From: Euglena gracilis
Taxonomy: Eukaryota
Reading direction: 5' to 3'
Length of the DNA stretch: 64,000 bases
Assembly (NCBI GenBank): GCA_039621445.1
Contig: CP154954.1
Location: 32,202,012-32,266,011, forward strand
Part shown: piece after piece, positions 4,737 to 61,065 of the stretch
Position numbering within the stretch: position 1 is the first letter of the stretch
Layout of the letters: the number at the start of each line of letters is the position of its first letter
Notes under the pieces: generated by a model
Told to the model about the DNA's origin: nothing
What the model saw: only the letters and a program-made list of their open reading frames with translations
Database searches by the model: none
Translations under genes and position numbers: made by a program

Positions 4737-4857
4737 TACATATGCATATGCACATACATATACATATGCGTATGCATAAACACATACATATACATTTACA
4801 TACACACCTATGCATATATATACATATACATATACGTATAGACATATACATATACAC

Positions 4858-4912
<55 letters not shown>

Positions 4913-20200: not shown

Positions 20201-22668
20201 CGTCCAGTGGATGTGTGTTACCGTCCGGGTAGGTGGGTCACCCTCCGGTGGATGTGCATCACGGTCCGCCGGAACACGCGTCACCGTCCAGTGGATGTGT
20301 GTTACCGTCCGGCAGAGGTGGGTCACCCTCCGGTGGATGTGCATCACCGTCCGCCGGAACATACGTCACCGTCCAGTGGATGTGTGTCACCGTGCTGTGG
20401 CTGTGCTACACCGTCCGGTGGATGTGCGTCACCATCCGGTGGATGTGCGTCACCGTACAGTGGATGTGCATCACCATCTGTATGGATCTTAGGAGGCCGG
20501 ATTCGCATTTAAGCTTTTTTATGTTTATTTGCACATTTGCGCAAATCCCGGAATTTCTTCACTTCGGCTGTATGGCTCCGGGGGTGTTTGAAAACACGGT
20601 GACAAGAGAGTGCAAAAAATGAGCTAAATTCTGTTTTTGGCTGTGAGACCCCTGGGGCTTTGGCCAAAAATGGTGTTTTTGGTGGGTCCGGAAATGGCCT
20701 CCGCGCGTCGAAACCCCCGGGACTTTCCCGTCCAAGGGAGAAAAAAATGGCAAAAAAGCGGCAAAGGAACGGGACCTTTGCTGCCCTTGTTGCTCTTGTC
20801 GGCTGTTTTCCTGGGTGGGCCTGGATTGCCGGCGGTGTGTGTCCTGGGTGTTTGCCGGACTGCTTCGCTTGTGGCGCCTTGGTGTGGTGTTTTTGGGTTG
20901 TTTGTTAAAGCGCGGGGAGGAAGTGCTGGGGGGTGAGGGTGCGGTGTGGCCAAGCCGGCGGGAAGGACGCAGGGAAAGGAAGATAAGTGTGGGGTGTTTG
21001 GCAAGGAATGCGCAGGGGGGAAGAAATAGGGACCTCAGGGAATGAAGTTTCCCACCCTATTTACACCCGGGATCTGCACAACCAGTTTTGTGGCAAAGAA
21101 CCCGGCAGAAGAAGCCGAACCCTTAAAGAACAAATTTGTGTTTATTTGCGCAATTGCGCACCAACATAATTATGTTGGTGCGCGCATTTGCGCAAATAAA
21201 CATAATTGTGTCTTTCAAGGGTTGGTCTTCAACACCCATGAACTGATGCCGTCGGTAAACGGCGTGACAAAGGGGCCGTGACGGTGCGAACCAGCGTGCC
21301 ATCGATAAACATAATTTGGTGGGTTTGTCTCACCGTTTGTCGACGGCGTTAGCTTATGGGCGCAAATGCGCGCACAAACAAAACTATGTTTATGCGCGCA
21401 TTTGCGCCCACGAAAAAAATTTGTATTGGTGGACGCAAATGCGCACATAAACCCAAAGAAGAAGGGTGTGACGGAAACACAATTGTGAAACGCCAGCAGC
21501 AGATGTGGTTCATTTGCGCATTTGTGCCCACAAGCAACGTGATGCGCGCAAATGCGCAAATGAACCACCAATGGAGGAGTAAAAAGTGGCTTCATTTGGC
21601 CCTCCAACAGCTAACCCCCCCCCAAAATACCTTGGCAGGGCCCAAATTCCTGGCGGGGGCCGAACAACCTGGGGGGGGGAGGGGCAAAAAAGATGGTTCC
21701 AGTAACTTGGCGGGGTCCTTTTTAGGCAAAATTCTTTTACGTCGCTGAAAAAGTGGCCCAAATAACCTGGCGGGGGGACAAGGCCAAAAGTTGGTTCCAA
21801 TAACCTGGCACCTCGCCATTTTATTTGGGGGGGGGTTACCCTTTGTGGCCTCTGAATGGGTTCAACACAAATGGCCACACCGTCTCCTCCGGCACATGGT
21901 ATTATGGTGCTGTTTCTGGTCCATTGACAGGTCCCACAAAAGAGGATCTCCTGAAGGTGGGTGTGCAGCCACCCGATAACGGCACACGTCCACCGGCACC
22001 GATTATGGGATCCCAAGGGCCCTGCCGCTGGCCTGCAGCCTCGGCTCCGCTGCTGCAGCCACATAAGCTGCGGATGCTTCTGCACCCACCAGACCGGCAT
22101 CCACCTCCCCGGTGCAACAACACCGAGCTTTAGCAGCCACGTTATTCCCCGCAACCGGCGTGTGAGACTGGGGGACGACGTGGTGCCAGTGCTTGGCAAC
22201 CAGCAGCCGGAGATAGGTAGCCCTCAAACACCCGTCATTTTGGGTGCAAGGAAGTGTTGAACCTTTACCATTTGACTGGTTGCATGAAAGCGGTGGGACC
22301 CACTCCCCTCAAATTATGCACAAAAACTGGTGTGTTTTACGGTTTTCAAGGGAAAAATGGTGGAGAAAAACCAGAAAACGGACTCCGGCCCGACGCAACC
22401 CGGGTGTTTCAGGTGCCAAATTTTGACTTCTTGTAACGCAGTACTGTTGCAGAAAAGGTGTCGAACAGTCACTGGTCGTTGCACGTCGTCAATTCATTAT
22501 GTTTAGTTGCCAAAAGCATGAGGCCAAAACAACACGCCGTGTGGACCGGAGAACAGCAGTGCAAATGTCCACACGTAAGGCAGACAAATTATGGCCAGTC
22601 AGATGCCGTGTTTAAATGAATATTGCATACTACCTCTCACCACAAATTTCATCACCACATATTTTATC

Positions 22669-25600
22669 GTTACCCACCCGTTTTGGGGGGGCAAATCCGT
22701 TTTGTTGCCCAACTGTTCGAGGGCCCCGAAACAACAAAATCCCTTGTGTTACCCACCCGTTTTGGGGGGGGGGGCAAAACCCTTTGGTTGCCCAACGGTT
22801 CGAGGGCCCCAAAATAACAAAATCCCTTGTGTTACCCACCCGTTTTGGGGGGGCAGATCCTTTTGGTTGCCGAACTGTTCGAGGGCCCCAAAACAACAAA
22901 ATCCCTTGTGTTACCCACCCGTTTTGGGGGGGCAAATCCCTTTTGTTGCCCAACTGTTCGAGGGCCCCAAAACAACAAAATCCCTTGTGTTACCCACCCG
23001 TTTTGGGGGGGCAAATCCCTTTTGTTGCCCAACTGTTCGAGGGCCCCAAAACAACAAAATCCCTTGTGTTACCCACCCGTTTTGGGGGGGGCAAAACCCT
23101 TTTGTTGCCGAACTGTTCGAGGGCCCCAAAACAACAAAATCCCTTGTGTTACCCACCCGTTTTGGGGGGGCAAATCCCTTTTGTTGCCCAACTGTTCGAC
23201 GGCCCCAAAACAACAAAATCCCTTGTGTTACCCACCCGTTTTGGGGGGCAAATCCCTTTTGTTGCCCAACTGTTCGAGGGCCCCAAAACAACAAAATCCC
23301 TTGTGTTACCCACCCGTTTTGGGGGGGCAAATCCCTTTGGTTGCCCAACTGTTCGAGGGCCCCAAAACAACAAAATCCCTTGTGTTACCCACCCGTTTTG
23401 GGGGGGCAAATCCGTTTTGTTGCCCAACTGTTCGAGGGCCCCAAAACAACAAAATCCCTTGTGTTACCCACCCGTTTTGGGGGGCAAATCCCTTTTGTTG
23501 CCCAACTGTTCGAGGGCCCCAAAACAACAAAATCCCTTGTGTTACCCACCCGTTTTGGGGGGGCAAATCCCTTTTGTTGCCCAACTGTTCGAGGGCCCCA
23601 AAACAACAAAATCCCTTGTGTTACCCACCCGTTTTGGGGGGGCAAATCCCTTTTGTTGCCGAACTGTTCGAGGGCCCCAAAACAACAAAATCCCTTGTGT
23701 TACCCACCCGTTTTGGGGGGGGCAAATCCCTTTTGTTGCCCAACTGTTCGAGGGCCCCAAAACAACAAAATCCCTTGTGTTACCCACCCGTTTTGGGGGG
23801 GCAAATCCGTTTTGTTGCTCAACTGTTCGAGGGCCCCAAAACAACAAAATCCCTTGTGTTACCCACCCGTTTTGGGGGGCAAATCCCTTTTGTTGCCCAA
23901 CTGTTCGAGGGCCCCAAAACAACAAAATCCCTTGTGTTACCCACCCGTTTTGGGGGGGCAAATCCCTTTTGTTGCCCAACTGTTCGAGGGCCCCAAAACA
24001 ACAAAATCCCTTGTGTTACCCACCCGTTTTGGGGGGGGGGCAAATCCCTTTGGTTGCCCAACTGTTCGAGGGCCCCAAAATAACAAAATCCCTTGTGTTA
24101 CCCACCCGTTTTGGGGGGGCAAATCCGTTTTGTTGCCCAACTGTTCGAGGGCCCCAAAACAACAAAATCCCTTGTGTTACCCACCCGTTTTGGGGGGCAA
24201 ATCCCTTTGGTTGCCCAACTGTTCGAGGGCCCCAAAACAACAAAATCCCTTGTGTTACCCACCCGTTTTGGGGGGGCAAATCCCTTTTGTTGCCCAACTG
24301 TTCGAGGGCCCCAAAATAACAAAATCCCTTGTGTTACCCACCCGTTTTGGGGGGCAAATCCGTTTTGTTGCCCAACTGTTCGAGGGCCCCAAAACAACAA
24401 AATCCCTTGTGTTACCCACCCGTTTTGGGGGGCAAATCCCTTTTGTTGCTCAACGGTTCGAGGGCCCCAAATCAACAAAATCCCTTGTGTTACCCACCCG
24501 TTTTGGGGGGCAAATCCGTTTTGTTGCCCAACTGTTCGAGGGCCCCAAAACAACAAAATCCCTTGTGTTACCCACCCGTTTTGGGGGGGGGGCAAATCCC
24601 TTTGGTTGCCCAACTGTTCGAGGGCCCCAAAACAACAAAATCCCTTGTGTTACCCACCCGTTTTGGGGGGGCAAATCCTTTTGGTTGCCGAACTGTTCGA
24701 GGGCCCCAAAATAACAAAATCCCTTGTGTTACCCACCCGTTTTGGGGGGCAAATCCCTTTGGTTGCCCAACTGTTCGAGGGCCCCAAAACAACAAAATCC
24801 CTTGTGTTACCCACCCGTTTTGGGGGGCAAATCCCTTTTGCTGCCCAACGGTTCGAGGGCCCCAAAATAACAAAATCCCTTGTGTTACCCACCCGTTTTG
24901 GGGGGGCAAATCCCTTTGGTTGCCAAACTGTTCGAGGGCCCCAAAACAACAAAATCCCTTGTGTTACCCACCCGTTTTGGGGGGCAAATCCCTTTGGTTG
25001 CCCAACTGTTCGAGGGCCCCAAAACAACAAAATCCCTTGTGTTACCCACCCGTTTTGGGGGGCAAATCCCTTTGGTTGCCCAACTGTTCGAGGGCCCCAA
25101 AACAACAAAATCCCTTGTGTTACCCACCCGTTTTGGGGGGCAAATCCCTTTTGCTGCCCAACGGTTCGAGGGCCCCAAAATAACAAAATCCCTTGTGTTA
25201 CCCACCCGTTTTGGGGGGCAAATCCCTTTGGTTGCCCAACTGTTCGAGGGCCCCAAAACAACAAAATCCCTTGTGTTACCCACCCGTTTTGGGGGGGAAA
25301 GTCCTTTGGGTTGGCGAACGGTTCGAGGGCCCCAAAACAACAAAATCCCTTGTGTTACCCACCCGTTTTGGGGGGGCAAATCCCTTTTGTTGCCCAACTG
25401 TTCGAGGGCCCCAAAACAACAAAATCCCTTGTGTTACCCACCCGTTTTGGGGGGGGCAAATCCCTTTTGTTGCCGAACTGTTCGAGGGCCCCAAAACAAC
25501 AAAATCCCTTGTGTTACCCACCCGTTTTGGGGGGGCAAATCCGTTTTGTTGCTCAACTGTTCGAGGGCCCCAAAACAACAAAATCCCTTGTGTTACCCAC

Positions 25601-28600
25601 CCGTTTTGGGGGGCAAATCCCTTTGGTTGCCCAACTGTTCGAGGGCCCCAAAACAACAAAATCCCTTGTGTTACCCACCCGTTTTGGGGGGGAAAAACCC
25701 TTTTTGTGTCAAAACTGTACGAGGGCCCCAAAAAAAAAAATCCCTTGTGTTACCCACCCGTTTTGGGGGGCAAATCCGTTTTGTTGCCCAACTGTTCGAG
25801 GGCCCCAAAACAACAAAATCCCTTGTGTTACCCACCCGTTTTGGGGGGCAAATCCGTTTTGTTGCTCAACTGTTCGAGGGCCCCAAATCAACAAAATCCC
25901 TTGTGTTACCCACCCGTTTTGGGGGGCAAATCCCTTTTGTTGCCCAACTGTTCGAGGGCCCCAAAACAACAAAATCCCTTGTGTTACCCACCCGTTTTGG
26001 GGGGGCAAATCCCTTTGGTTGCCCAACTGTTCGAGGGCCCCAAAACAACAAAATCCCTTGTGTTACCCACCCGTTTTGGGGGGCAAATGCCTTTGGTTGG
26101 CGAACGGTTCAAGGGCCCCAAAATAACAAAATCCCTTGTGTTACCCACCCGTTTTGGGGGGGCAAATCCCTTTGGTTGCCCAACTGTTCGAGGGCCCCAA
26201 AATAACAAAATCCCTTGTGTTACCCACCCGTTTTGGGGGGCAAATCCCTTTGGTTGCCCAACGGTTCGAGGGCCCCAAAATAACAAAATCCCTTGTGTTA
26301 CCCACCCGTTTTGGGGGGGCAAATCCCTTTGGTTGCCCAACTGTTCGAGGGCCCCAAAACAACAAAATCCCTTGTGTTACCCACCCGTTTTGGGGGGCAA
26401 ATCCGTTGGTTGCACAACTGTTCGAGGGCCCCAAAACAACAAAATCCCTTGTGTTACCCACCCGTTTTGGGGGGGCAAATCCCTTTGGTTGCCCAACTGT
26501 TCGAGGGCCCCAAAATAACAAAATCCCTTGTGTTACCCATTCGTTTTGGGGGGCAAATCCCTTTTGTTGCCCAACGGTTCGAGGGCCCCAAAATAACAAA
26601 ATCCCTTGTGTTACCCACCCGTTTTGGGGGGGCAAATCCCTTTGGTTGCCCAACTGTTCGAGGGCCCCAAAACAACAAAATCCCTTGTGTTACCCACCCG
26701 TTTTGAGGGACAAACCCCTTTGGTTGGCGACCTGTTCGATGGCGCCAAACTCACAAAATCCCTTGTGTTACCCACCCGTTTTGGGGGGGCAAATCCCTTT
26801 TGTTGCCCAACTGTTCGAGGGCCCCAAAACAACAAAATCCCTTGTGTTACCCACCCGTTTTGGGGGGGGCAAATCCCTTTTGTTGCCGAACTGTTCGAGG
26901 GCCCCAAAACAACAAAATCCCTTGTGTTACCCACCCGTTTTGGGGGGGCAAATCCCTTTTGTTGCCCAACTGTTCGAGGGCCCCAAAACAACAAAATCCC
27001 TTGTGTTACCCACCCGTTTTGGGGGGGCAAATCCCTTTGGTTGCCCAACTGTTCGAGGGCCCCAAAATAACAAAATCCCTTGTGTTACCCACCCGTTTTG
27101 GGGGGGCAAATCCCTTTTGTTGCCCAACTGTTCGAGGGCCCCAAAACAACAAAATCCCTTGTGTTACCCACCCGTTTTGGGGGTAGATCCCTTTTGTTGC
27201 CCAACGGTTCGAGGGCCCCAAAACAACAAAATCCCTTGTGTTACCCACCCGTTTTGGGGGGGGCAAAACCCTTTTGGGGCCGAAATGTACGAGGGCCCCA
27301 AAATAACAAAATCCCTTGTGTTACCCACCCGTTTTGGGGGGCAAATCCCTTTTGTTGCCCAACTGTTCGAGGGCCCCAAAACAACAAAATCCCTTGTGTT
27401 ACCCACCCGTTTTGGGGGGGCAAATCCCTTTTGTTGCTCAACTGTTCGAGGGCCCCAAAACAACAAAATCCCTTGTGTTACCCACCCGTTTTGGGGGGCA
27501 AATCCCTTTTGTTGCCCAACTGTTCGAGGGCCCCAAAACAACAAAATCCCTTGTGTTACCCACCCGTTTTGGGGGGGCAAATCCCTTTGGTTGCCCAACT
27601 GTTCGAGGGCCCCAAAACAACAAAATCCCTTGTGTTACCCACCCGTTTTGGGGGGGCAAAATCCTTTGGTTGCCCAACGGTTCGAGGGCCCCAAAATAAC
27701 AAAATCCCTTGTGTTACCCACCCGTTTTGGGGGGGCAAATCCCTTTGGTTGCCCAACTGTTCGAGGGCCCCAAAACAACAAAATCCCTTGTGTTACCCAC
27801 CCGTTTTGGGGGGGGAAAGCCGTTTTGTTCCCCAACCGTACGAGGGCCCCAAAAAAACAAAATCCCTTGTGTTACCCACCCGTTTTGGGGGCAAATCCCT
27901 TTGGTTGCCGAACTGTTCGAGGGCCCCAAAACAACAAAATCCCTTGTGTTACCCACCCGTTTTGGGGGGCAAATCCCTTTGGTTGCCCAACTGTTCGAGG
28001 GCCCCAAAACAACAAAATCCCTTGTGTTACCCACCCGTTTTGGGGGGGCAAATCCCTTTGGTTGCCCAACTGTTCGAGGGCCCCAAAATAACAAAATCCC
28101 TTGTGTTACCCACCCGTTTTGGGGGGCAAATCCCTTTTGCTGCCCAACGGTTCGAGGGCCCCAAAATAACAAAATCCCTTGTGTTACCCACCCGTTTTGG
28201 GGGGGCAAATCCCTTTGGTTGCCCAACTGTTCGAGGGCCCCAAAACAACAAAATCCCTTGTGTTACCCACCCGTTTTGGGGGACAAACCCCTTTGGTTGG
28301 CGAACGGTTCGAGGGCCCCAAACTGACAAAATCCCTTGTGTTACCCACCCGTTTTGGGGGGGCAAATCCCTTTTGCTGCCGAACTGTTCGAGGGCCCCAA
28401 AACAACAAAATCCCTTGTGTTACCCACCCGTTTTGGGGGGGGGGCAAATCCCTTTTGTTGCCCAACTGTTCGAGGGCCCCAAAATAACAAAATCCCTTGT
28501 GTTACCCACCCGTTTTGGGGGGGCAAATCCCTTTGTTGCCCAACTGTTCGAGGGCCCCAAAATAACAAAATCCCTTGTGTTACCCACCCGTTTTGGGGGG

Positions 28601-31600
28601 GGGGCAAAACCCTTTTGTTGCCCAACTGTTCGAGGGCCCCAAAACAACAAAATCCCTTGTGTTACCCACCCGTTTTGGGGGGGCAAATCCGTTTTGTTGC
28701 CCAACTGTTCGAGGGCCCCAAATCAACAAAATCCCTTGTGTTACCCACCCGTTTTGGGGGACAAACCCCTTTGGTTGGCGAACGGTTCGAGGGCCCCAAA
28801 ATAACAAAATCCCTTGTGTTACCCACCCGTTTTGGGGGGGCAAATCCGTTTTGTTGCCCAACTGTTCGAGGGCCCCAAATCAACAAAATCCCTTGTGTTA
28901 CCCACCCGTTTTGGGGGGGCAAATCCGTTTTGTTGCCCAACTGTTCGAGGGCCCCAAAACAACAAAATCCCTTGTGTTACCCACCCGTTTTGGGGGGCAA
29001 ATCCGTTTTGTTGCCCAACTGTTCGAGGGCCCCAAAACAACAAAATCCCTTGTGTTACCCACCCGTTTTGGGGGGGCAAATCCCTTTTGCTGCCGAACTG
29101 TTCGAGGGCCCCAAAACAACAAAATCCCTTGTGTTACCCACCCGTTTTGGGGGGCAAATCCCTTTTGTTGCCCAACTGTTCGAGGGCCCCAAAACAACAA
29201 AATCCCTTGTGTTACCCACCCGTTTTGGGGGACAAACCCCTTTGGTTGGCGAACGGTTCAAGGGCCCCAAAATAACAAAATCCCTTGTGTTACCCACCCG
29301 TTTTGGGGGGGCAAATCCCTTTTGTTGCCCAACTGTTCGAGGGCCCCAAAACAACAAAATCCCTTGTGTTACCCACCCGTTTTGGGGGGGGGGGCAAAAC
29401 CCTTTGGTTGCCGAACTGTTCGAAGGCCCCAAAATAACAAAATCCCTTGTGTTACCCACCCGTTTTGGGGGGGGCAATCCCTTTGGTTGCCGAACTGTTC
29501 GAGGGCCCCAAAACAACAAAATCCCTTGTGTTACCCATTCGTTTTGGGGGGCAAATCCCTTTTGTTGCCCAACTGTTCGAGGGCCCCAAAACAACAAAAT
29601 CCCTTGTGTTACCCACCCGTTTTGGGGGGGCAAATCCGTTTTGTTGCCCAACTGTTCGAGGGCCCCAAAACAACAAAATCCCTTGTGTTACCCACCCGTT
29701 TTGGGGGGGGCAAAACCCTTTTGTTGCCCAACGGTTCGAGGGCCCCAAAATAACAAAATTTCTTGTGTTACCCACCCGTTTTGGGGGGGGGGCAAAACCC
29801 TTTGGTTGCCGAACTGTTCGAGGGCCCCAAAACAACAAAATCCCTTGTGTTACCCACCCGTTTTGGGGGGGCAAATCCCTTTGGTTGCCCAACTGTTCGA
29901 GGGCCCCAAAACAACAAAATCCCTTGTGTTACCCACCCGTTTTGGGGGGGCAAATCCCTTTTGTTGCTCAACTGTTCGAGGGCCCCAAAACAACAAAATC
30001 CCTTGTGTTACCCACCCGTTTTGGGGGGGCAAATCCCTTTTGTTGCCCAACTGTTCGAGGGCCCCAAAACAACAAAATCCCTTGTGTTACCCACCCGTTT
30101 TGGGGGGGGCAAAACCCTTTTGTTGCCGAACTGTTCGAGGGCCCCAAAACAACAAAATCCCTTGTGTTACCCACCCGTTTTGGGGGGGCAAATCCCTTTT
30201 GTTGCCCAACTGTTCGAGGGCCCCAAAACAACAAAATCCCTTGTGTTACCCACCCGTTTTGGGGGGGCAAATCCCTTTGGTTGCCGAACTGTTCGAGGGC
30301 CCCAAAACAACAAAATCCCTTGTGTTACCCACCCGTTTTGGGGGGGCAAATCCCTTTTGTTGCCCAACTGTTCGAGGGCCCCAAAACAACAAAATCCCTT
30401 GTGTTACCCATTCGTTTTGGGGGGGCAAATCCCTTTTGTTGCCCAACTGTTCGAGGGCCCCAAAACAACAAAATCCCTTGTGTTACCCACCCGTTTTGGG
30501 GGGGCAAATCCCTTTTGTTGCCCAACTGTTCGAGGGCCCCAAAACAACAAAATCCCTTGTGTTACCCACCCGTTTTGGGGGGGGGGCAAATCCCTTTGGT
30601 TGCCCAACTGTTCGAGGGCCCCAAAACAACAAAATCCCTTGTGTTACCCACCCGTTTTGGGGGGGCAAATCCCTTTGGTTGCCGAACTGTTCGAGGGCCC
30701 CAAAATAACAAAATCCCTTGTGTTACCCACCCGTTTTGGGGGGCAAATCCCTTTGGTTGCCGAACTGTTCGAGGGCCCCAAAACAACAAAATCCCTTGTG
30801 TTACCCACCCGTTTTGGGGGGGCAAAACCCTTTGGTTGCCCAACGGTTCGAGGGCCCCAAAATAACAAAATCCCTTGTGTTACCCACCCGTTTTGGGGGG
30901 GGGGGCAAAACCCTTTGGTTGCCCAACGGTTCGAGGGCCCCAAAATAACAAAATCCCTTGTGTTACCCACCCGTTTTGGGGGGGCAATCCCTTTGGTTGC
31001 CGAACTGTTCGAGGGCCCCAAAACAACAAAATCCCTTGTGTTACCCACCCGTTTTGGGGGGCAAATCCCTTTGGTTGCCGAACTGTTCGACGGCCCCAAA
31101 ACAACAAAATCCCTTGTGTTACCCACCCGTTTTGGGGGGGCAAATCCCTTTTGCTGCCGAACTGTTCGAGGGCCCCAAAACAACAAAATCCCTTGTGTTA
31201 CCCACCCGTTTTGGGGGGCAAATCCCTTTTGTTGCCCAACTGTTCGAGGGCCCCAAAACAACAAAATCCCTTGTGTTACCCACCCGTTTTGGGGGGGCAA
31301 ATCCCTTTGGTTGCCGAACTGTTCGAGGGCCCCAAAACAACAAAATCCCTTGTGTTACCCACCCGTTTTGGGGGGGCAAATCCCTTTGTTGCCCAACTGT
31401 TCGAGGGCCCCAAAACAACAAAATCCCTTGTGTTACCCACCCGTTTTGGGGGGGCAAATCCCTTTGGTTGCCCAACTGTTCGAGGGCCCCAAAACAACAA
31501 AATCCCTTGTGTTACCCACCCGTTTTGGGGGGGCAAATCCCTTTGGTTGCCCAACTGTTCGAGGGCCCCAAAACAACAAAATCCCTTGTGTTACCCACCC

Positions 31601-34600
31601 GTTTTGGGGGGGGGCAAATCCCTTTTGTTGCCCAACTGTTCGAGGGCCCCAAAACAACAAAATCCCTTGTGTTACCCACCCGTTTTGGGGGGCAAATCCC
31701 TTTGGTTGCCCAACTGTTCGAGGGCCCCAAAACAACAAAATCCCTTGTGTTACCCACCCGTTTTGGGGGGCAAATCCGTTTTGTTGCTCAACTGTTCGAG
31801 GGCCCCAAAACAACAAAATCCCTTGTGTTACCCACCCGTTTTGGGGGGCAAATCCGTTTTGTTGCCCAACTGTTCGAGGGCCCCAAAACAACAAAATCCC
31901 TTGTGTTACCCACCCGTTTTGGGGGGCAAATCCGTTTTGTTGCTCAACTGTTCGAGGGCCCCAAATCAACAAAATCCCTTGTGTTACCCACCCGTTTTGG
32001 GGGGCAAATCCGTTTTGTTGCCCAACTGTTCGAGGGCCCCAAAACAACAAAATCCCTTGTGTTACCCACCCGTTTTGGGGGGGGCAAATCCGTTTTGTTG
32101 CCCAACTGTTCGAGGGCCCCAAAACAACAAAATCCCTTGTGTTACCCACCCGTTTTGGGGGGCAAATCCCTTTGGTTGCCAAACGGTTCGAGGGCCCCAA
32201 AATAACAAAATCCCTTGTGTTACCCACCCGTTTTGGGGGGGCAAATCCCTTTGGTTGCCCAACTGTTCGAGGGCCCCAAAATAACAAAATCCCTTGTGTT
32301 ACCCACCCGTTTTGGGGGGGCCAATTCCTTTTTGTTGCCCAACTGTTCGAGGGCCCCAAAATAACAAAATCCCTTGTGTTACCCACCCGTTTTGGGGGGG
32401 GGGCAAATCCCTTTGGTTGCCCAACTGTTCGAGGGCCCCAAAATAACAAAATCCCTTGTGTTACCCACCCGTTTTGGGGGGCAAATCCCTTTTGTTGCCC
32501 AACTGTTCGAGGGCCCCAAAACAACAAAATCCCTTGTGTTACCCACCCGTTTTGGGGGGGGGGGCAAATCCCTTTGGTTGCCGAACTGTTCGAGGGCCCC
32601 AAATCAACAAAATCCCTTGTGTTACCCACCCGTTTTGGGGGGGCAAATCCGTTTTGTTGCCCAACTGTTCGAGGGCCCCAAAACAACAAAATCCCTTGTG
32701 TTACCCACCCGTTTTGGGGGGGGCAAATCCCTTTGGTTGCCCAACTGTTCGAGGGCCCCAAAATAACAAAATCCCTTGTGTTACCCACCCGTTTTGGGGG
32801 GGGCAAATCCGTTTTGTTGCCCATTTGTTCGAGGGCCCCAAAACAACAAAATCCCTTGTGTTACCCACCCGTTTTGGGGGGGGGCAAATTGGGGGGGGGA
32901 GGGCCAAATTTTGTTGCCCAACTGTTCGAGGGCCCCAAAATAACAAAATCCCTTGTGTTACCCACCCGTTTTGGGGGGGGCAAATCCCTTTTGTTGCCCA
33001 ACTGTTCGAGGGCCCCAAAACAACAAAATCCCTTGTGTTACCCACCCGTTTTGGGGGGGGCAAAACCCTTTTGTTGCCCAACGGTTCGAGGGCCCCAAAA
33101 CAACAAAATCCCTTGTGTTACCCACCCGTTTTGGGGGGGCAAATCCGTTTTGTTGCCCAACTGTTCGAGGGCCCCAAATCAACAAAATCCCTTGTGTTAC
33201 CCACCCGTTTTGGGGGGGCAAATCCCTTTGGTTGCCCAACGGTTCGAGGGCCCCAAACAACAAAATCAACAAAATCCCTTGTGTTACCCACCCGTTTTGG
33301 GGGGCAAATCCGTTTTGTTGCCCAACTGTTCGAGGGCCCCAAAACAACAAAATCCCTTGTGTTACCCACCCGTTTTGGGGGGGCAAATCCCTTTGGTTGC
33401 CGAACTGTTCGAGGGCCCCAAAACAACAAAATCCCTTGTGTTACCCACCCGTTTTGGGGGGGCAAATCCCTTGGGTTGCCGAACTGTTCGAGGGCCCCAA
33501 AACAACAAAATCCCTTGTGTTACCCACCCGTTTTGGGGGACAAACCCCTTTGGTTGGCGAACGGTTCAAGGGCCCCAAAATAACAAAATCCCTTGTGTTA
33601 CCCACCCGTTTTGGGGGGGCAAAACCCTTTGGTTGCCCAACGGTTCGAGGGCCCCAAAATAACAAAATCCCTTGTGTTACCCACCCGTTTTGGGGGGGGG
33701 GCAAAACCCTTTGGTTGCCGAACTGTTCAAAGGCCCCAAAATAACAAAATCCCTTGTGTTACCCACCCGTTTTGGGGGGGCAATCCCTTTGGTTGCCGAA
33801 CGGTTCGAGGGCCCCAAAACAACAAAATCCCTTGTGTTACCCACCCGTTTTGGGGGGGCAAAACCCTTTGGTTGCCCAACTGTTCGAGGGCCCCAAAACA
33901 ACAAAATCCCTTGTGTTACCCACCCGTTTTGGGGGGGGGCAAAACCCTTTGGTTGCCGAACTGTTCGAAGGCCCCAAAATAACAAAATCCCTTGTGTTAC
34001 CCACCCGTTTTGGGGGGGCAATCCCTTTGGTTGCCGAACTGTTCGAGGGCCCCAAAACAACAAAATCCCTTGTGTTACCCACCCGTTTTGGGGGGGCAAT
34101 CCCTTTTGTTGCCCAACTGTTCGAGGGCCCCAAAACAACAAAATCCCTTGTGTTACCCACCCGTTTTGGGGGGCAAATCCCTTTTGTTGCTCAACTGTTC
34201 GACGGCCCCAAAACAACAAAATCCCTTGTGTTACCCACCCGTTTTGGGGGGGGGGGGGGCAGATCCCTTTGGTTGCCGAACTGTTCGAGGGCCCCAAATC
34301 AACAAAATCCCTTGTGTTACCCACCCGTTTTGGGGGGGGGGGGGCAAATCCGTTTTGTTGCTCAACAGTTCGAGGGCCCCAAATCAACAAAATCCCTTGT
34401 GTTACCCACCCGTTTTTGGGGGACAAATCCGTTTTGTTGCCCAACTGTTCGAGGGCCCCAAAACAACAAAATCCGTTGTGTTACCCACCCGTTTTGGGGG
34501 GGCAATCCCTTTGGTTGGCGAACGGTTCAAGGGCCCCAAAATAACAAAATCCCTTGTGTTACCCACCCGTTTTGGGGGCAAATCCCTTTTGCTGCCCAAC

Positions 34601-37600
34601 GGTTCGAGGGCCCCAAAATAACAAAATCCCTTGAGTTACCCACCCGTTTTGGGGGGGCAAATCCCTTTGGTTGCCCAACTGTTCGAGGGCCCCAAAACAA
34701 CAAAATCCCTTGTGTTACCCACCCGTTTTGGGGGGGGGGGGGGGCAAATCCCTTTGGTTGCCCAACTGTTCGAGGGCCCCAAAACAACAAAATCCCTTGT
34801 GTTACCCACCCGTTTTGGGGGGCAAATGCCTTTGGTTGGCGAACGGTTCAAGGGCCCCAAAATAACAAAATCCCTTGTGTTACCCACCCGTTTTGGGGGG
34901 CAAATCCCTTTTGCTGCCCAACGGTTCGAGGGCCCCAAAATAACAAAATCCCTTGAGTTACCCACCCGTTTTGGGGGGGCAAATCCCTTTGGTTGCCCAA
35001 CTGTTCGAGGGCCCCAAAACAACAAAATCCCTTGTGTTACCCACCCGTTTTGGGGGGGCAAATGCCTTTGGTTGCCCAACTGTTCGAGGGCCCCAAAACA
35101 ACAAAATCCCTTGTGTTACCCACCCGTTTTGAGGGACAAACCCCTTTGGTTGGCGAACGGTTCGAGGGCCCCAAACTGACAAAATCCCTTGTGTTACCCA
35201 CCCGTTTTGGGGGGGCAAATCCGTTTTGTTGCCCATTTGTTCGAGGGCCCCAAAACAACAAAATCCCTTGTGTTACCCACCCGTTTTGGGGGGGGGGCAA
35301 ATCCCTTTTGTTGCCCAACTGTTCGAGGGCCCCAAAATAACAAAATCCCTTGTGTTACCCACCCGTTTTGGGGGGGGGCAAATCCGTTTTGTTGCCCAAC
35401 GGTTCGAGGGCCCCAAAACAACAAAATCCCTTGTGTTACCCACCCGTTTTGGGGGGCAAATCCCTTTTGTTGCCCAACTGTTCGAGGGCCCCAAAACAAC
35501 AAAATCCCTTGTGTTACCCACCCGTTTTGGGGGGGGCAAAACCCTTTTGTTGCCCAACGGTTCGAGGGCCCCAAAACAACAAAATCCCTTGTGTTACCCA
35601 CCCGTTTTGGGGGGGCAAATCCCTTTTGTTGCCCAACTGTTCGAGGGCCCCAAAACAACAAAATCCCTTGTGTTACCCACCCGTTTTGGGGGGGGCAAAT
35701 CCCTTTTGTTGCCCAACTGTTCGAGGGCCCCAAAATAACAAAATCCCTTGTGTTACCCACCCGTTTTGGGGGGGGGCAAATCCCTTTTGTTGCCCAACTG
35801 TTCGAGGGCCCCAAAATAACAAAATCCCTTGTGTTACCCACCCGTTTTGGGGGGCAAATCCCTTTTGTTGCCGAACTGTTCGAGGGCCCCAAAATAACAA
35901 AAATCCTTGGGGCCACCCCCCGTTTTGGGGGGGCAAATCCCTTTTGTTGCCCAACTGTTCGAGGGCCCCAAATCAACAAAATCCCTTGTGTTACCCACCC
36001 GTTTTGGGGGGGCAAATCCGTTTTGTTGCCCAACTGTTCGAGGGCCCCAAAACAACAAAATCCCTTGTGTTACCCACCCGTTTTGGGGGGGCAAATCCCT
36101 TTTGTTGCCCAACTGTTCGAGGGCCCCAAAACAACAAAATCCCTTGTGTTACCCACCCGTTTTGGGGGGCAAATCCCTTTTGTTGCCGAACTGTTCGAGG
36201 GCCCCAAAACAACAAAATCCCTTGTGTTACCCACCCGTTTTGGGGGGGCAAATCCCTTTGGTTGCCGAACTGTTCGAGGGCCCCAAAACAACAAAATCCC
36301 TTGTGTTACCCACCCGTTTTGGGGGACAAACCCCTTTTGTTGCTCAACGGTTCAAGGGCCCCAAAATGACAAAATCCCTTGTGTTACCCACCCGTTTTGG
36401 GGGGGCAAAACCCTTTGGTTGCCCAACTGTTCGAGGGCCCCAAAATAACAAAATCCCTTGTGTTACCCACCCGTTTTGGGGGGGCAAAACCCTTTTGTTG
36501 CCCAACGGTTCGAGGGCCCCAAAATAACAAAATCCCTTGTGTTACCCACCCGTTTTGGGGGGGGCAAAACCTTTTGGTTGCCGAACTGTTCGAAGGCCCC
36601 AAAATAACAAAATCCCTTGTGTTACCCACCCGTTTTGGGGGGGCAATCCCTTTGGTTGCCGAACTGTTCGAGGGCCCCAAAACAACAAAATCCCTTGTGT
36701 TACCCACCCGTTTTGGGGGGGCAAAACCCTTTGGTTGCCCAACGGTTCGAGGGCCCCAAAACAACAAAATCCCTTGTGTTACCCACCCGTTTTGGGGGGG
36801 CAAAACCCTTTTGTTGCCCAACGGTTCGAGGGCCCCAAAATAACAAAATCCCTTGTGTTACCCACCCGTTTTGGGGGGGGCAAACCCCTTTGGTTGCCGA
36901 ACTGTTCGAGGGCCCCAAAATAACAAAATCCCTTGTGTTACCCACCCGTTTTGGGGGGCAAATCCCTTTGGTTGCCGAACTGTTCGAGGGCCCCAAAACA
37001 ACAAAATCCCTTGTGTTACCCACCCGTTTTGGGGGGCAAATCCGTTTTGTTGCCCAACTGTTCGAGGGCCCCAAAACAACAAAATCCCTTGTGTTACCCA
37101 CCCGTTTTGGGGGGCAAATCCCTTTTGTTGCCCAACTGTTCGAGGGCCCCAAAACAACAAAATCCCTTGTGTTACCCACCCGTTTTGGGGGGGGGGGGCA
37201 AATCCCTTTGGTTGCCGAACTGTTCGAGGGCCCCAAATCAACAAAATCCCTTGTGTTACCCACCCGTTTTGGGGGGGGGGGGCAAATCCCTTTTGTTGCC
37301 CAACTGTTCGAGGGCCCCAAATCAACAAAATCCCTTGTGTTACCCACCCGTTTTGGGGGGCAAATCCGTTTTGTTGCCCAACTGTTCGAGGGCCCCAAAA
37401 CAACAAAATCCCTTGTGTTACCCACCCGTTTTGGGGGGGGGGGCAAATCCCTTTGGTTGCCCAACTGTTCGAGGGCCCCAAAACAACAAAATCCCTTGTG
37501 TTACCCACCCGTTTTGGGGGGCAAATGCCTTTGGTTGGCGAACGGTTCAAGGGCCCCAAAATAACAAAATCCCTTGTGTTACCCACCCGTTTTGGGGGGG

Positions 37601-40600
37601 GCAAATCCCTTTTGTTGCCCAACTGTTCGAGGGCCCCAAAATAACAAAATCCCTTGTGTTACCCACCCGTTTTGGGGGGGCAAATCCCTTTGGTTGCCCA
37701 ACTGTTCGAGGGCCCCAAAACAACAAAATCCCTTGTGTTACCCACCCGTTTTGGGGGGGCAAAACCCTTTGGTTGGCGAACGGTTCAAGGGCCCCAAAAT
37801 AACAAAATCCCTTGTGTTACCCACCCGTTTTGGGGGGGCAAAACCCTTTGGTTGCCCAACGGTTCGAGGGCCCCAAAATAACAAAATCCCTTGTGTTACC
37901 CACCCGTTTTGGGGGGGGGCAAAACCCTTTTGTTGCCCAACGGTTCGAGGGCCCCAAAATAACAAAATCCCTTGTGTTACCCACCCGTTTTGGGGGGGGC
38001 AAAACCTTTTGGTTGCCGAACTGTTCGAAGGCCCCAAAATAACAAAATCCCTTGTGTTACCCACCCGTTTTGGGGGGGCAATCCCTTTGGTTGCCGAACT
38101 GTTCGAGGGCCCCAAAAAAAAAAAATCCCTTGTGTTACCCACCCGTTTTGGGGGGGCAAAACCCTTTGGTTGCCCAACTGTTCGAGGGCCCCAAAATAAC
38201 AAAATCCCTTGTGTTACCCACCCGTTTTGGGGGGGCAAAACCCTTTTGTTGCCCAACGGTTCGAGGGCCCCAAAATAACAAAATTTCTTGTGTTACCCAC
38301 CCGTTTTGGGGGGGGCAAAACCCTTTGGTTGCCGAACTGTTCGAAGGCCCCAAAATAACAAAATCCCTTGTGTTACCCACCCGTTTTGGGGGGGCAATCC
38401 CTTTGGTTGCCGAACTGTTCGAGGGCCCCAAAACAACAAAATCCCTTGTGTTACCCATTCGTTTTGGGGGGCAAATCCGTTTTGTTGCCCAACTGTTCGA
38501 GGGCCCCAAAAAAACAAAAACCCTTGTGTTAACCACCCGTTTGGGGGGCAAATCCCTTTTGTTGCCCAACTGTTCGACGGCCCCAAAACAACAAAATCCC
38601 TTGTGTTACCCACCCGTTTTGGGGGGGGGGGCAGATCCCTTTGGTTGCCGAACGGTTCGAGGGCCCCAAATCAACAAAATCCCTTGTGTTACCCACCCGT
38701 TTTGGGGGGGGGGGCAAATCCGTTTTGTTGCTCAACAGTTCGAGGGCCCCAAATCAACAAAATCCCTTGTGTTACCCACCCGTTTTGGGGGACAAATCCG
38801 TTTTGTTGCCCAACTGTTCGAGGGCCCCAAAACAACAAAATCCCTTGTGTTACCCACCCGTTTTGGGGGGGGGGCAAATCCCTTTGGTTGCCCAACTGTT
38901 CGAGGGCCCCAAAACAACAAAATCCCTTGTGTTACCCACCCGTTTTGGGGGGCAAATGCCTTTGGTTGGCGAACGGTTCAAGGGCCCCAAAATAACAAAA
39001 TCCCTTGTGTTACCCACCCGTTTTGGGGGGCAAATCCCTTTTGCTGCCCAACGGTTCGAGGGCCCCAAAATAACAAAATCCCTTGAGTTACCCACCCGTT
39101 TTGGGGGGGCAAATCCCTTTGGTTGCCCAACTGTTCGAGGGCCCCAAAACAACAAAATCCCTTGTGTTACCCACCCGTTTTGGGGGACAAACCCCTTTGG
39201 TTGGCGAACGGTTCAAGGGCCCCAAAATAACAAAATCCCTTGTGTTACCCACCCGTTTTGGGGGGGCAAAACCCTTTGGTTGCCCAACGGTTCGAGGGCC
39301 CCAAAATAACAAAATCCCTTGTGTTACCCACCCGTTTTGGGGGGGGGGCAAAACCCTTTTGTTGCCCAACGGTTCAAGGGCCCCAAAATAACAAAATTTC
39401 TTGTGTTACCCACCCGTTTTGGGGGGGGCAAAACCTTTTGGTTGCCGAACTGTTCGAAGGCCCCAAAATAACAAAATCGCTTGTGTTACCCACCCGTTTT
39501 GGGGGGGCAATCCCTTTGGTTGCCGAACGGTTCGAGGGCCCCAAAACAACAAAATCCCTTGTGTTACCCACCCGTTTTGGGGGGGCAAAACCCTTTGGTT
39601 GCCCAACGGTTCGAGGGCCCCAAAACAACAAAATCCCTTGTGTTACCCACCCGTTTTGGGGGGGGCAAAACCCTTTTGTTGCCCAACGGTTCGAGGGCCC
39701 CAAAATAACAAAATTTCTTGTGTTACCCACCCGTTTTGGGGGGGGGCAAAACCCTTTGGTTGCCGAACTGTTCGAAGGCCCCAAAATAACAAAATCCCTT
39801 GTGTTACCCACCCGTTTTGGGGGGGCAATCCCTTTGGTTGCCGAACTGTTCGAGGGCCCCAAAACAACAAAATCCCTTGTGTTACCCATTCGTTTTGGGG
39901 GGCAAATCCGTTTTGTTGCCCAACTGTTCGAGGGCCCCAAAACAACAAAATCCCTTGTGTTACCCACCCGTTTTGGGGGGCAAATCCCTTTTGTTGCCCA
40001 ACTGTTCGACGGCCCCAAAACAACAAAATCCCTTGTGTTACCCACCCGTTTTGGGGGGGGGGGCAGATCCCTTTGGTTGCCGAACTGTTCGAGGGCCCCA
40101 AATCAACAAAATCCCTTGTGTTACCCACCCGTTTTGGGGGGGGGGGGCAAATCCGTTTTGTTGCTCAACAGTTCGAGGGCCCCAAATCAACAAAATCCCT
40201 TGTGTTACCCACCCGTTTTGGGGGACAAATCCGTTTTGTTGCCCAACTGTTCGAGGGCCCCAAAACAACAAAATCCCTTGTGTTACCCACCCGTTTTGGG
40301 GGGGGGGGGCAAATCCCTTTGGTTGCCCAACTGTTCGAGGGCCCCAAAACAACAAAATCCCTTGTGTTACCCACCCGTTTTGGGGGGCAAATGCCTTTGG
40401 TTGGCGAACGGTTCAAGGGCCCCAAAACAACAAAATCCCTTGTGTTACCCACCCGTTTTGGGGGGCAAATCCCTTTTGCTGCCCAACGGTTCGAGGGCCC
40501 CAAAATAACAAAATCCCTTGAGTTACCCACCCGTTTTGGGGGGGCAAATGCCTTTGGTTGCCCAACTGTTCGAGGGCCCCAAATCAACAAAATCCCTTGT

Positions 40601-43244
40601 GTTACCCACCCGTTTTGAGGGACAAACCCCTTTGGTTGGCGAACGGTTCGAGGGCCCCAAACTGACAAAATCCCTTGTGTTACCCACCCGTTTTGGGGGG
40701 GCAAATCCGTTTTGTTGCCCATTTGTTCGAGGGCCCCAAAACAACAAAATCCCTTGTGTTACCCACCCGTTTGGGGGGGGGGGGGGCAAATCCTTTTTGT
40801 TGCCCAACTGTTCAAGGGCCCCAAAATAACAAAATCCCTTGTGTTACCCACCCGTTTTGGGGGGGGCAAATCCGTTTTGTTGCCCAACGGTTCGAGGGCC
40901 CCAAAACAACAAAATCCCTTGTGTTACCCACCCGTTTTGGGGGGGCAAATGCCTTTGGTTGCCCAACTGTTCGAGGGCCCCAAAACAACAAAATCCCTTG
41001 TGTTACCCACCCGTTTTGAGGGACAAACCCCTTTGGTTGGCGAACGGTTCGAGGGCCCCAAACTGACAAAATCCCTTGTGTTACCCACCCGTTTTGGGGG
41101 GGCAAATCCCTTTTGTTGCCCAACTGTTCGAGGGCCCCAAAATAACAAAATCCCTTGTGTTACCCACCCGTTTTGGGGGGGGCAAATCCCTTTTGTTGCC
41201 CAACGGTTCGAGGGCCCCAAAACAACAAAATCCCTTGTGTTACCCACCCGTTTTGGGGGGGCAAATGCCTTTGGTTGCCCAACGGTTCGAGGGCCCCAAA
41301 ACAACAAAATCCCTTGTGTTACCCACCCGTTTTGGGGGACAAACCCCTTTGGTTGGCGAACGGTTCAAGGGCCCCAAAATAACAAAATCCCTTGTGTTAC
41401 CCACCCGTTTTGGGGGGGCAAATCCGTTTTGTTGCCCAACTGTTCGAGGGCCCCAAATCAACAAAATCCCTTGTGTTACCCACCCGTTTTGGGGGGGCAA
41501 ATCCGTTTTGTTGCCCAACTGTTCGAGGGCCCCAAAACAACAAAATCCCTTGTGTTACCCACCCGTTTTGGGGGGGCAAATCCGTTTTGTTGCCCAACTG
41601 TTCGAGGGCCCCAAAACAACAAAATCCCTTGTGTTACCCACCCGTTTTGGGGGGCAAATCCCTTTTGCTGCCGAACTGTTCGAGGGCCCCAAAACAACAA
41701 AATCCCTTGTGTTACCCACCCGTTTTGGGGGGGGCAAATGCCTTTGGTTGCCCAACTGTTCGAGGGCCCCAAAATAACAAAATCCCTTGTGTTACCCACC
41801 CGTTTTGGGGGACAAACCCCTTTGGTTGGCGAACGGTTCAAGGGCCCCAAAATAACAAAATCCCTTGTGTTACCCACCCGTTTTGGGGGGGCAAAACCCT
41901 TTGGTTGCCCAACGGTTCGAGGGCCCCAAAATAACAAAATCCCTTGTGTTACCCACCCGTTTTGGGGGGGGGCAAAACCCTTTGGTTGCCGAACTGTTCG
42001 AAGGCCCCAAAATAACAAAATCGCTTGTGTTACCCACCCGTTTTGGGGGGGCAATCCCTTTGGTTGCCGAACTGTTCGAGGGCCCCAAAACAACAAAATC
42101 CCTTGTGTTACCCATTCGTTTTGGGGGGGCAAATGCCTTTGGTTGCCCAACTGTTCGAGGGCCCCAAAACAACAAAATACCTTGTGTTACCCACCCGTTT
42201 TGGGGAGGCAAATCCCTTTTGTTGCCCAACTGTTTGAGGGCCCCAAAACAACAAAATCCCTTGTGTTACCCACCCGTTTTGGGGGGCAAATCCCTTTTGT
42301 TGCCGAACTGTTCGAGGGCCCCAAAATAACAAAATCCCTTGTGTTACCCACCCGTTTGGGGGGGGGGGGCAAAACCCTTTTGTTGCCCAACGGTTCGAGG
42401 GCCCCAAAATAACAAAATTTCTTGTGTTACCCACCCGTTTTGGGGGGGGCAAAACCCTTTGGTTGCCGAACTGTTCGAAGGCCCCAAAATAACAAAATCC
42501 CTTGTGTTACCCACCCGTTTTGGGGGGGCAATCCCTTTGGTTGCCGAACTGTTCGAGGGCCCCAAATCAACAAAATCCCTTGTGTTACCCACCCGTTTTG
42601 GGGGGGGGCAAATCCGTTTTGTTGCTCAACAGTTCGAGGGCCCCAAATCAACAAAATCCCTTGTGTTACCCACCCGTTTTGGGGGGGCAAATCCGTTTTG
42701 TTGCCCAACTGTTCGAGGGCCCCAAAACAACAAAATCCCTTGTGTTACCCACCCGTTTTGGGGGGGGGGGCAAATCCCTTTGGTTGCCCAACTGTTCGAG
42801 GGCCCCAAAACAACAAAATCCCTTGTGTTACCCACCCGTTTTGGGGGGGCAGATCCCTTTGGTTGGCGAACGGTTCAAGGGCCCCAAAATAACAAAATCC
42901 CTTGTGTTATCCACCCGTTTTGGGGGGGGCAAATCCCTTTGGTTGCCCAACTGTTCGAGGGCCCCAAAATAACAAAATCCCTTGTGTTACCCACCCGTTT
43001 TGGGGGGCAAATCCCTTTTGCTGCCCAACGGTTCGAGGGCCCCAAAATAACAAAATCCCTTGTGTTACCCACCCGTTTTGGGGGGGCAAATGCCTTTGGT
43101 TGCCCAACTGTTCGAGGGCCCCAAAACAACAAAATCCCTTGTGTTACCCACCCGTTTTGGGGGACAAACCCCTTTGGTTGGCGAACGGTTCGAGGGCCCC
43201 AAACTGACAAAATCCCTTGTGTTACCCACCCGTTTTGGGGGGGA
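22669..43244. repeat. 79-bp tandem satellite, about 260 units, with higher-order repeats
   Basis: Unit GTTACCCACCCGTTTTG(6-12)CAAATCCCTTTTGTTGCCCAACTGTTCGAGGGCCCCAAAACAACAAAATCCCTTGT. TATC flanks both ends. Confidence 0.97.
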
Positions 43245-43305
43245 TATCAAGGGTTGTCATGTGGAATTGCGTTCGCCAGCCGTCATGGACGAGGAGATGG
43301 TGTCG

Positions 43306-43764
43306 CACAACTGATGTGTGTTTGTGCTCGCATTTGCACACACAAGCAAATTTTCTTTGTGTGCGCTGAGGCTCGCTCAAACAGCTTATTTTGAAGCTTT
43401 AATCAAATGGTTCTGCGTGCACTTGCGCAAATGCCCGCACAAATGTAATTGTGTTTATTTGCGCAAATGCGCGCACCAACACGCCTATCACGTTCAAAAA
43501 CCTCGTAGGGTCACGGTCCTCCTCAGTGTGCTTTAACACAGACATGTTGTTTGTTGCCTCCCATTGCACAAACCATCCCTATACCAGTTTCCCCAGGGTG
43601 TTGGTTTGCGCATTTGCGCACACAAACAAATTTGTTTGTGGGCGCATTTGCGCCCACAAACGAGTATTTTTCTTGCAATATTTGCGTGTTTATTTGTGCA
43701 AATGCGTCCATAAACAAATTGTTTTTATTTGCGCAAATGCGCGCACAAACACACATCAGTTGTG
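43306..43764. mobile_element. Nested MITE with a 22-bp TIR, rich in TTTGCGCAAATGCGC motifs
   Basis: CACAACTGATGTGTGTTTGTGC ... GCACAAACACACATCAGTTGTG. A related motif cluster lies at 21130-21560. TSD unclear. Confidence 0.7.
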
Positions 43765-44227
43765 TAGTGTGTGATGTAATAGGGCTCTGTGTGTTCTTAT
43801 GGGCGGCTACAGTATTCAAGCCAGTTCAGCACGTCGGCACCAGTTCCAAGTGTCGTAACAGCGGGTTTGTGCTTCTCACCTGTTTGATGTACGAGAGCAC
43901 CAGTCTCACCCTCGGCCTTATTCATATCACTCGGTAAGCAGATGTGCACTAAACTGCTGGCGTTAATCCCCTCCAATAGAGGGGTGTAACGGTTCATAAT
44001 CTGTTTTCTCTGTGTGTCAGGGTACAGGGTCCCAGAAATTTTGCAAAATTTGTGCATTTGCGCAAATGCGCCCATTTCAAAGAAAAAAACTTTAAGTGCG
44101 AATCCGGCCGCCTTAGTGGATGTGTGTCACCGTCCGGTGGATGTGTGTCACCATCCGGTGGATGTGTGTCACCATCCGGTGGATGTGTGTCACCATCCAG
44201 TGGATGTGCGTCACCGTCCGGTGGATG

Positions 44228-44664
44228 AACAGTCAGCAGTACCTCCGGTACCACCCCTCTCATTACCTGGAGTGCTAACGGCACCAACCGCAACAGAGCC
44301 TGTCGCGTCACCGACAATACCTACAGGTGTTTTAGGTGGTGTGCTACAGGGTCTGACCGCGGCGATGTCCGCAATATCAACAGTGCTGACCCCTCGCAGC
44401 TCATCTGCCGCATCCCCACCAGAAACCCAACGGTTTCCTGCTGATGACAGCAGCTCAACAGCCGCACAGGCTGCGGTCACAACTCCAGTGGAGTTGGATG
44501 TATTAGCAGCCACACCAGCTGCGCAAGCACCGCCAACGGCGGATATGCAACCACCCACTGCCAAACCGGCAGCTCAGACACCGCCAACAGCAGAAAGACC
44601 ACTGCCTCTGGCAGACCCCAGAGAGGAATGCCGATATGGCAAGAAATCAAAGCCTCAGGCCTAA
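44228..44664 (+). other. Orphan Ala/Pro/Thr-rich open frame embedded in the 21-bp minisatellite (probable TE or gene fragment)
   Basis: About 145 codons are open (QSAVPPVPP...KKSKPQA*). A-ending codons are frequent, unlike the host exons. No start or splice signal is evident. Confidence 0.35.
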
Positions 44665-45142
44665 ACCCCCAGCCAAAGGCTTACATGTGCGTCACCGTCC
44701 GGTGGATGTGCGTCACCGTCCGGTGGATGGTATTTTTCCAAAAAAATCATGAACAATTGTGAAAATCAGGGGAAATTCATACGAGTGATTTTTTTCTTTT
44801 GCAATTTTATAGCACGATTAATCACGAAAAATCACGGAATCGTCACAAATGAGAATTTGGGGTCCCCGGCACGAAACAGAAGTAAACCCTGCTGTTCAAT
44901 CTATGTGCATGATGTTCCGGTGGATGCGCGTCACTGTCCTTTTTTTGTGTGTCATTGTCCAGTGGATGTGCACACATCCATTGGCCATATGATGTATTTT
45001 TGCAGCACACCTGAGCTCCGCATATTATCTCTTCCAGTTTTATTGAAGTTTGCCAGTGCAGCTCCGGCATGTCAGGCACTGTCCAGTTTCCTCATTAATG
45101 TGGCGGCATCCCCCTCTGCTTCACCTGGACTTCCTCTCGCAG

Positions 45143-61065
<15,923 letters not shown>

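Follow-up and report, generated by a model that had tools for sequence, protein, structure and literature searches.

How does a satellite array of 20.6 kb come to lie between two matching inverted ends of the kind that bound a DNA transposon? The question is raised by a 64,000-nucleotide stretch of the Euglena gracilis genome (GenBank assembly GCA_039621445.1, contig CP154954.1, positions 32,202,012 to 32,266,011 of the forward strand), which we refer to as the window and whose own coordinates are used throughout. The window is eukaryote-like DNA, rich in repeats and without N bases, with a G+C content of 0.527 and a CpG observed/expected ratio of 0.62. We lean modestly towards the following answer: the locus is an old non-autonomous PIF/Harbinger (Tourist-like) transposon that inserted at a TTA within a minisatellite and whose internal 79-bp repeat then grew mainly in place. 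That the locus is one single element and not two we consider quite likely.

The ends are 21-bp terminal inverted repeats (TIRs), the left at 20492-20512 and the right, read as the reverse complement, at 44112-44092, which are identical at 19 of 21 positions; beyond them a weaker similarity extends to about 55 bp (79% over 58 columns). Searched across the window with up to three mismatches, the 18-base core of the TIR matched twice, at the two element ends and in inverted orientation, with 0.13 matches expected, and by our own arithmetic 64 kb should contain a second 21-mer with up to two mismatches about 3e-5 times. TTA abuts both ends (20489-20491 and 44113-44115), and the 12-base palindrome ATTTGCGCAAAT is found 43 bp from the left end (20535-20546) and 45 bp from the right end (44056-44067). 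The two arms, 2,177 bp on the left and 869 bp on the right, sum to 3,046 bp and enclose an array of 20,575 bp (22669-43243), and the DNA beyond both ends is built of the same 21-bp minisatellite unit in the same orientation. All of this bears out the anatomy given in an initial annotation of the locus, which had listed matching TIRs of about 21 bp, TTA on both sides, subterminal palindromes, the same minisatellite on both flanks 23.6 kb apart, an array of 20.6 kb, and an element of about 3 kb without it. When a nested insert in the left arm is subtracted together with the array, about 2.8 kb remains. The features are as follows, with the strand given where one applies and the source of each assignment in parentheses.

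17211-20475: left flank, 21-bp minisatellite of about 158 units, the putative insertion target (tandem-repeat scan, sequence)
20489-20491: left TTA, putative target-site duplication, possibly part of CTTAG at 20488-20492 (sequence)
20492-20512, plus strand: left TIR, 21 bp, beginning GGAGGCCGG (sequence, core search, contig-depth step)
20492-22668: left arm, 2,177 bp, non-coding, abundant dispersed family (Pfam scans, contig mapping)
20531-20546: left subterminal palindromic motif, GCGCAWWTGCGC-like and overlapping ATTTGCGCAAAT, 43 bp from the end (motif searches)
21111-21568: left internal cluster of hairpin units centred on GCGCAWWTGCGC, seven motif matches (repeat scan, DNA fold)
21614-21836: nested small element of 223 bp with A-C9...G9-T ends, flanked by TA (contig joints, second copy)
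22669-43243, plus strand: 79-bp satellite array, about 260 monomers, head-to-tail (tandem-repeat scan, anchors)
36300-40300, plus strand: block of 18 monomers (about 1.4 kb) in about three tandem copies, limits approximate (lag-18 identity, variable site 38)
43244-44112: right arm, 869 bp, non-coding (sequence, Pfam scans)
43306-43764: right internal cluster of hairpin units, same motif, five motif matches (repeat scan, DNA fold)
44052-44071: right subterminal palindromic motif, 45 bp from the end (motif searches)
44092-44112, minus strand: right TIR, 21 bp, 19/21 identical to the left TIR (sequence, core search)
44113-44115: right TTA, putative target-site duplication (sequence)
44116-44227: right flank, same 21-bp minisatellite, 5.3 units, same orientation (tandem-repeat scan)

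The subterminal motifs are concentrated in the two arms. All eight matches to ATTTGCGCAAAT in the window with up to one mismatch fall inside the arms (0.32 expected), and for the wider motif GCGCAWWTGCGC 15 of 17 matches do so (0.39 expected). Each arm also carries one cluster of about 460 bp (21111-21568 and 43306-43764) made of hairpin-forming units centred on GCGCAWWTGCGC; folded as DNA, the left cluster reaches -135.6 kcal/mol (z = -12.0) and the right -116.5 kcal/mol (z = -9.6). The GCGCAWWTGCGC motifs are probably binding sites for a transposase that comes from another element and moves the family. The core TTGCGCAA inside ATTTGCGCAAAT, present in both arms, resembles the palindromic site of C/EBP-type bZIP factors. 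Likeness between the arms is limited to the 55-bp end and these motif clusters, and they therefore look like different halves of one element rather than one end present twice. The identical minisatellite on the two flanks argues for insertion into that minisatellite, although by itself it is no proof of a single event. Several reading frames of the 21-bp minisatellite stay open, for example as a PVDV-rich repeat, and rightward it continues into an open frame of 224 amino acids (43990-44664) with no Pfam match; a further stretch of the same unit lies at 44685-44729. The minisatellite is itself repeated in the genome, at a summed depth of 6-26k in other DNA runs.

We consider membership of PIF/Harbinger probable. 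Elements of this superfamily make 3-bp TTA or TAA duplications, and seven TIRs of 14-25 bp given in the available text of PMC6327408 all open with GG; the length of 21 bp and the GG start seen here fit this short-TIR feature. The superfamily requires two proteins and has a target preference that extends 3 bp beyond the duplication on each side (PMC2836001); the extended preference spans 9 bp in plants and 15 bp in vertebrates. In the zebrafish element a Myb-like protein binds a 9-bp subterminal motif (PMC9710019). The present element has TTA flanks, a 21-bp TIR beginning with GG, and subterminal motifs, all of which fit the Harbinger-like label of the initial annotation; the absence of a transposase or Myb-like gene and the possibility of a 5-bp duplication do not, so the label stands as a probable one. 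The single target site, as reconstructed, is ATC-TTA-GTG. It agrees at eight of nine positions with the maize PIF consensus CWCTTAGWG, a string that a literature search found in no paper.

The coding content gives no gene by which the class could be fixed. We collected 277 stop-to-stop open reading frames (ORFs) of at least 75 amino acids outside the arrays and scanned 276 of them, leaving out the one at 395-1186 on the plus strand. No Pfam family was found at E ≤0.001 in these 276 of 277 ORFs, which include all ORFs of both arms. Neither a DDE transposase of PIF/Harbinger type nor a Myb/SANT-like second gene was present among the Pfam-scanned ORFs, and a non-autonomous member needs neither. 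Having no transposase and no Pfam domain, the copy is unable to move by itself. Two hits under looser thresholds, NFXL1 RRM-like (E 0.0025) and Auxin_repressed (E 0.0096), were set aside as noise, as they are below the family cut-offs and far from the element. Rfam and tRNA scans of the window each gave zero matches, and the 64-kb window as a whole appears gene-free.

The alternative that survives best keeps the TIR-bounded element and places it in another superfamily, either one with a 5-bp duplication or an undescribed group; we regard this as unlikely. Its main support is that the flanks can also be read as a 5-bp direct repeat, CTTAG (20488-20492 and 44112-44116), with the TIRs equally well aligned, which is possible because the first base of the element is G and its last base C. 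There is moreover no transposase by which to classify the element, and past the leading GG its GC-rich end is unlike the plant PIF ends shown in the available text of PMC6327408. Against this, the C-TTA-G context is PIF/Harbinger-like in the light of the extended target preference (PMC2836001). CACTA/EnSpm fits poorly, since the ends open with GGAGG and GGCGG and not with CACTA, and hAT and piggyBac are argued against by 8-bp flanks that differ and by the lack of TTAA, respectively. The TIR register is kept by direct-repeat readings of 3 and 5 bp and lost by those of 2 or 4 bp; taking TA as the direct repeat puts the TIRs one base out of register. Two other kinds of carrier are also argued against: a Helitron or Helentron by the 21-bp inverted ends and the flanking direct repeat, and a foldback (Tetris-like) element by end similarity that stops at about 55 bp and by an array in which none of 259 monomer anchors is reversed.

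The array itself is uniform in direction and confined to the element. All 259 anchors lie on the plus strand at spacings of 77-87 bp, the exceptions being two gaps (97 and 157 bp), and the 64-kb window contains no anchor outside the array; no detectable similarity links the 79-mer to either arm or to any other part of the window (best E 0.11). Aligning 257 of the 258 intervals, with the 157-bp interval excluded, gave a mean pairwise monomer identity of about 0.94 that is flat across lags 1-12 (0.936-0.944). This flatness rejects a regular 157-bp dimer, a period proposed by the tandem-repeat scan. A split of the array into duplicated halves at 32882-32909 was likewise rejected, as the site is one locally garbled monomer and a lag of about 130 is not among the best lags. 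Monomer variation is concentrated in seven columns, each with two common alleles.

The clearest structure within the array is a longer period. The best of all lags is 18, with an identity of 0.9492 against a mean of 0.9376, and between about 36.3 and 40.3 kb a block of 18 monomers (about 1.4 kb) is present about three times, with a lag-18 identity of 0.971-0.982 compared with 0.92-0.97 elsewhere. Variable site 38 shows a period-18 pattern along the same zone. This block duplication means that at least part of the growth of the array occurred in place, and from this, together with the single orientation and the homogeneity of the monomers, we conclude that the array most likely grew in place.

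The left arm is part of a large family, as sequencing runs of the same organism reveal. A search with the left arm listed 14 DNA-type runs, each with 0.32-0.46 of the sampled words, and no RNA run. We then mapped contigs to 20400-22830 only, a segment that includes some flank and the first two 79-bp monomers, so that the counts include matches to both; three DNA runs from different studies (X1, X9, and X13) and one RNA run (X21) were used. Of the 37.9 million contig records of X1, 73,316 matched; X9 gave 84,069 matches among 45.3 million records, and X13 gave 33,906 among 9.0 million. Most were 90-95% identical; in X1, 7,219 were at least 99% identical, 20,690 fell between 95% and 99%, 32,472 between 90% and 95%, and 12,935 below 90%. 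From bin 20400-20481 to bin 20482-20563 the summed depth, which is not a copy number, rises 15- to 21-fold (17.9k to 371k in X1, 26.3k to 523k in X9, and 6.0k to 90k in X13), and this step marks a family boundary at the left end. In X1 the median arm bin holds 0.66 million (range 0.13-2.3 million), compared with 6.5 and 9.8 million in the two bins of the 79-mer, so the 79-mer stands at about 10-15 times the arm depth. The left arm is thus a very abundant, diverged dispersed family, and the 79-mer is still more abundant. At many positions almost every contig differs from the base in the window, which indicates that the present copy is old.

Other data sets add little to this picture. From X21, 438 of 12.9 million reads match, on both strands; 285 are less than 90% alike, 372 are partial, and five are at least 99% identical. 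They hint at low-level RNA related to the family and provide nothing firm for the present copy. A metagenome scan with the 18-base end core gave 11 loci, all matches of 18-28 bp that we attribute to chance.

These observations suggest a course of events for the old PIF/Harbinger-like copy. A protein-coding relative would have supplied the transposase and its Myb-like partner, which may have recognised the ends and the palindromic motif and inserted the element at TTA. The family was amplified greatly, as is evident for the left arm. The number of 79-bp repeats would have shifted by unequal exchange or replication slippage, reaching about 260 units here, at least in part in place and perhaps mainly after the insertion. 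Decay of the copy would have followed, as seen in two mismatches among the 21 end positions, in substitutions of its own, and in the insertion nested in its left arm. Being 23.6 kb long, with ends that have diverged and an insert in one arm, it is today a fossil and no longer mobile.

A stronger version, in which the 20-kb array was already inside the moving element and the family is a giant satellite carrier, seems improbable to us. It can draw on the abundance of arm and 79-mer, which recurs in each of three independent DNA runs and is about 10-15 times greater for the 79-mer, and on monomer identity that is alike within and between blocks, most of the array being without signs of recent local growth. 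It has to contend with the 18-monomer duplication, which is growth in place, and with the fact that a second array-bearing copy was not seen. Cut-and-paste efficiency declines with the length of a DNA transposon, which we also count against it. The Harbinger-type carriers described in the available text of PMC7290377 hold just 3-5 units. The initial annotation had presented the locus as a giant transposon, and as a statement about a 23.6-kb mobile unit this is not upheld, given that expansion of the array at its insertion site accounts for the size at least equally well. Its further proposal, a spreading of satellite blocks by the transposon, is consistent with how abundant arm and 79-mer are; no other arm-array junction is present among the contigs listed.

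Two separate truncated insertions of one family, flanking an independent satellite array, are a very doubtful explanation. TTA at both outer ends would be expected in any case for a TTA-targeting family, the phase of the minisatellite is broken at the site, and the continuity of the array is taken from the assembled sequence. Yet the window holds two end matches and not four, the arm contents are different and complementary, the 79-mers of the window are confined to the element, and the same minisatellite stands outside both ends with nothing like it between arm and array. Least probable of all is an assembly artefact in the length of the array or in the joining of the arms, for which 20.6 kb of a very abundant monomer at 94% identity would be hard-to-assemble material, and against which speak a window free of N bases, a variant pattern without periodicity over the length of the array, and clean junctions on both sides with matching outer flanks.

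The account that we prefer, of an old non-autonomous PIF/Harbinger insertion with an array grown mainly in place, also has observations that weigh against it. Apart from the CTTAG reading and the missing transposase, no autonomous partner was found anywhere in the window, and the superfamily is not firmly established because one copy was read without a partner element. The matching TTA does little to support a single event, since a TTA-targeting family would leave it at unrelated ends as well. The phase of the minisatellite across the empty site is not seamless, and an 11-bp partial unit there contains the TTA. Within the array, the edge monomers are no more diverged than the central ones (identity to the consensus is 0.982 for the first 20 monomers and about 0.945 for the last block on the right side), which misfits the simplest picture of unequal exchange. 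Family abundance was measured on the left arm alone and as summed depth. No contig listed from X1, X9, or X13 bridges the arm-array junction at 22668, and depth, about 640k at 22584, is down to about 100-200k at 22621-22628, immediately ahead of that junction.

Tandem repeats inside transposons, including those of Harbinger type, have already been described, and the present case differs from them in scale and not in kind. As in other transposon-borne satellites, the repeats here are enclosed by the ends of a single element. A string search of the literature returned no paper with the monomer, end, minisatellite, or motif strings. The closest relatives in form are the Vaccinium elements HARB-N1_VCo as well as HARB-N7_VMa, which are also non-coding, dispersed, and flanked by TAA or TTA, and which contain VaccSat7 units; they hold their 3-5 units near the 3' end, compared with about 260 units (20.6 kb) in the present copy (PMC7290377). 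VaccSat7 has an expected monomer of 79 bp, but as monomers of 49-72 bp are also reported in the same source and the present window has 52% G+C, the shared monomer length is probably a coincidence.

Other known systems share single aspects of this architecture. In Drosophila virilis, the internal repeats of the non-autonomous transposon Tetris (TIR-220) built satellite arrays of kilobase size, although those repeats sit in long inverted ends, whereas the present array is central, runs in one orientation, and lies between short TIRs (PMC4079207). DTC84 of the clam Donax trunculus resembles our element in that its arms form a cassette around an internal array of variable copy number; it carries at most five core repeats together with a microsatellite tail, its putative duplication is AA, and in comparison the present element is larger, flanked by TTA, and endowed with a far longer array and ends that are still recognisable (PMC3879986). 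Satellite carriers of the Helentron type have been described in oyster (PMC7492417), and a review describes how internal transposon arrays expand into classical satellites (PMC12628747). Tourist-like elements moved by PIF, Ping, or Pong are likewise non-coding, with short TIRs that begin with GG; they make a TTA duplication, have subterminal similarity to their partner and very high copy numbers, and at 100-500 bp they are smaller than the present element even when its array and nested insert are left out (PMC6327408, PMC2836001).

If this assignment is right, the copy would be a clean intermediate on the way from mobile element to satellite, with both ends, the duplicated target, and the flanking DNA still intact on either side of 20.6 kb of array. 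Transposon-borne arrays in the sources available are much shorter: Harbinger-type elements have 3-5 units, DTC84 has at most five, and Tetris arrays are of kilobase size. Should other copies of the family hold 79-mers as well, their array sizes could be counted from starting points that are known, a series suited to measuring satellite growth. In annotation, arms and 79-mer would best be handled as a single repeat family. A much wider proposal, which we put forward as a long shot, is that the family is both birthplace and vehicle of a major satellite of the genome: most 79-bp arrays would then lie in family copies, seeded by transposition and expanded later, arrays of about 20 kb might act as dispersed heterochromatin or centromere-like units, and the hairpin clusters could drive expansion through stalled replication.

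Contig joints in X1, X9, and X13 that skip 21612-21845 show the 223-bp insert in the left arm to be absent from the family consensus, and this insertion, lacking in other copies, is a further sign that the present copy is old. A second copy of this small element of about 223 bp, also with TA on both sides, lies at 12283-12506. With its A-C9...G9-T ends, the element is Stowaway or Tc1/mariner-like in form. Long runs of C or G are unusually frequent outside the array: homopolymers of at least nine bases number 46 for C, 27 for G, and nine each for A and T, and some of the C or G runs mark the ends of the small TA-flanked element.

The surroundings contain further repeats. Another dispersed repeat is present in two inverted copies (8699-10630 and 51978-56301) on either side of about 42 kb that includes the element; the copies match over 1,170 bp at 84% and 640 bp at 87%, and neither contains a Pfam domain. 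Palindromic or foldback-like segments were found at 48215-48494 (282 bp, 87%), 45858-45959 (102 bp, 98%), and 46500-46709 (219 bp, 72%), and a short interstitial telomere-like run of CCCTAA-type repeats at 46251-46327. Very long microsatellites occupy 3508-4010, 4736-4955, 45959-46120, 46747-46891, and 48492-49459, examples being about 82 units of TGTATA and about 1 kb of ATAC, ATAT, and ATGT units.

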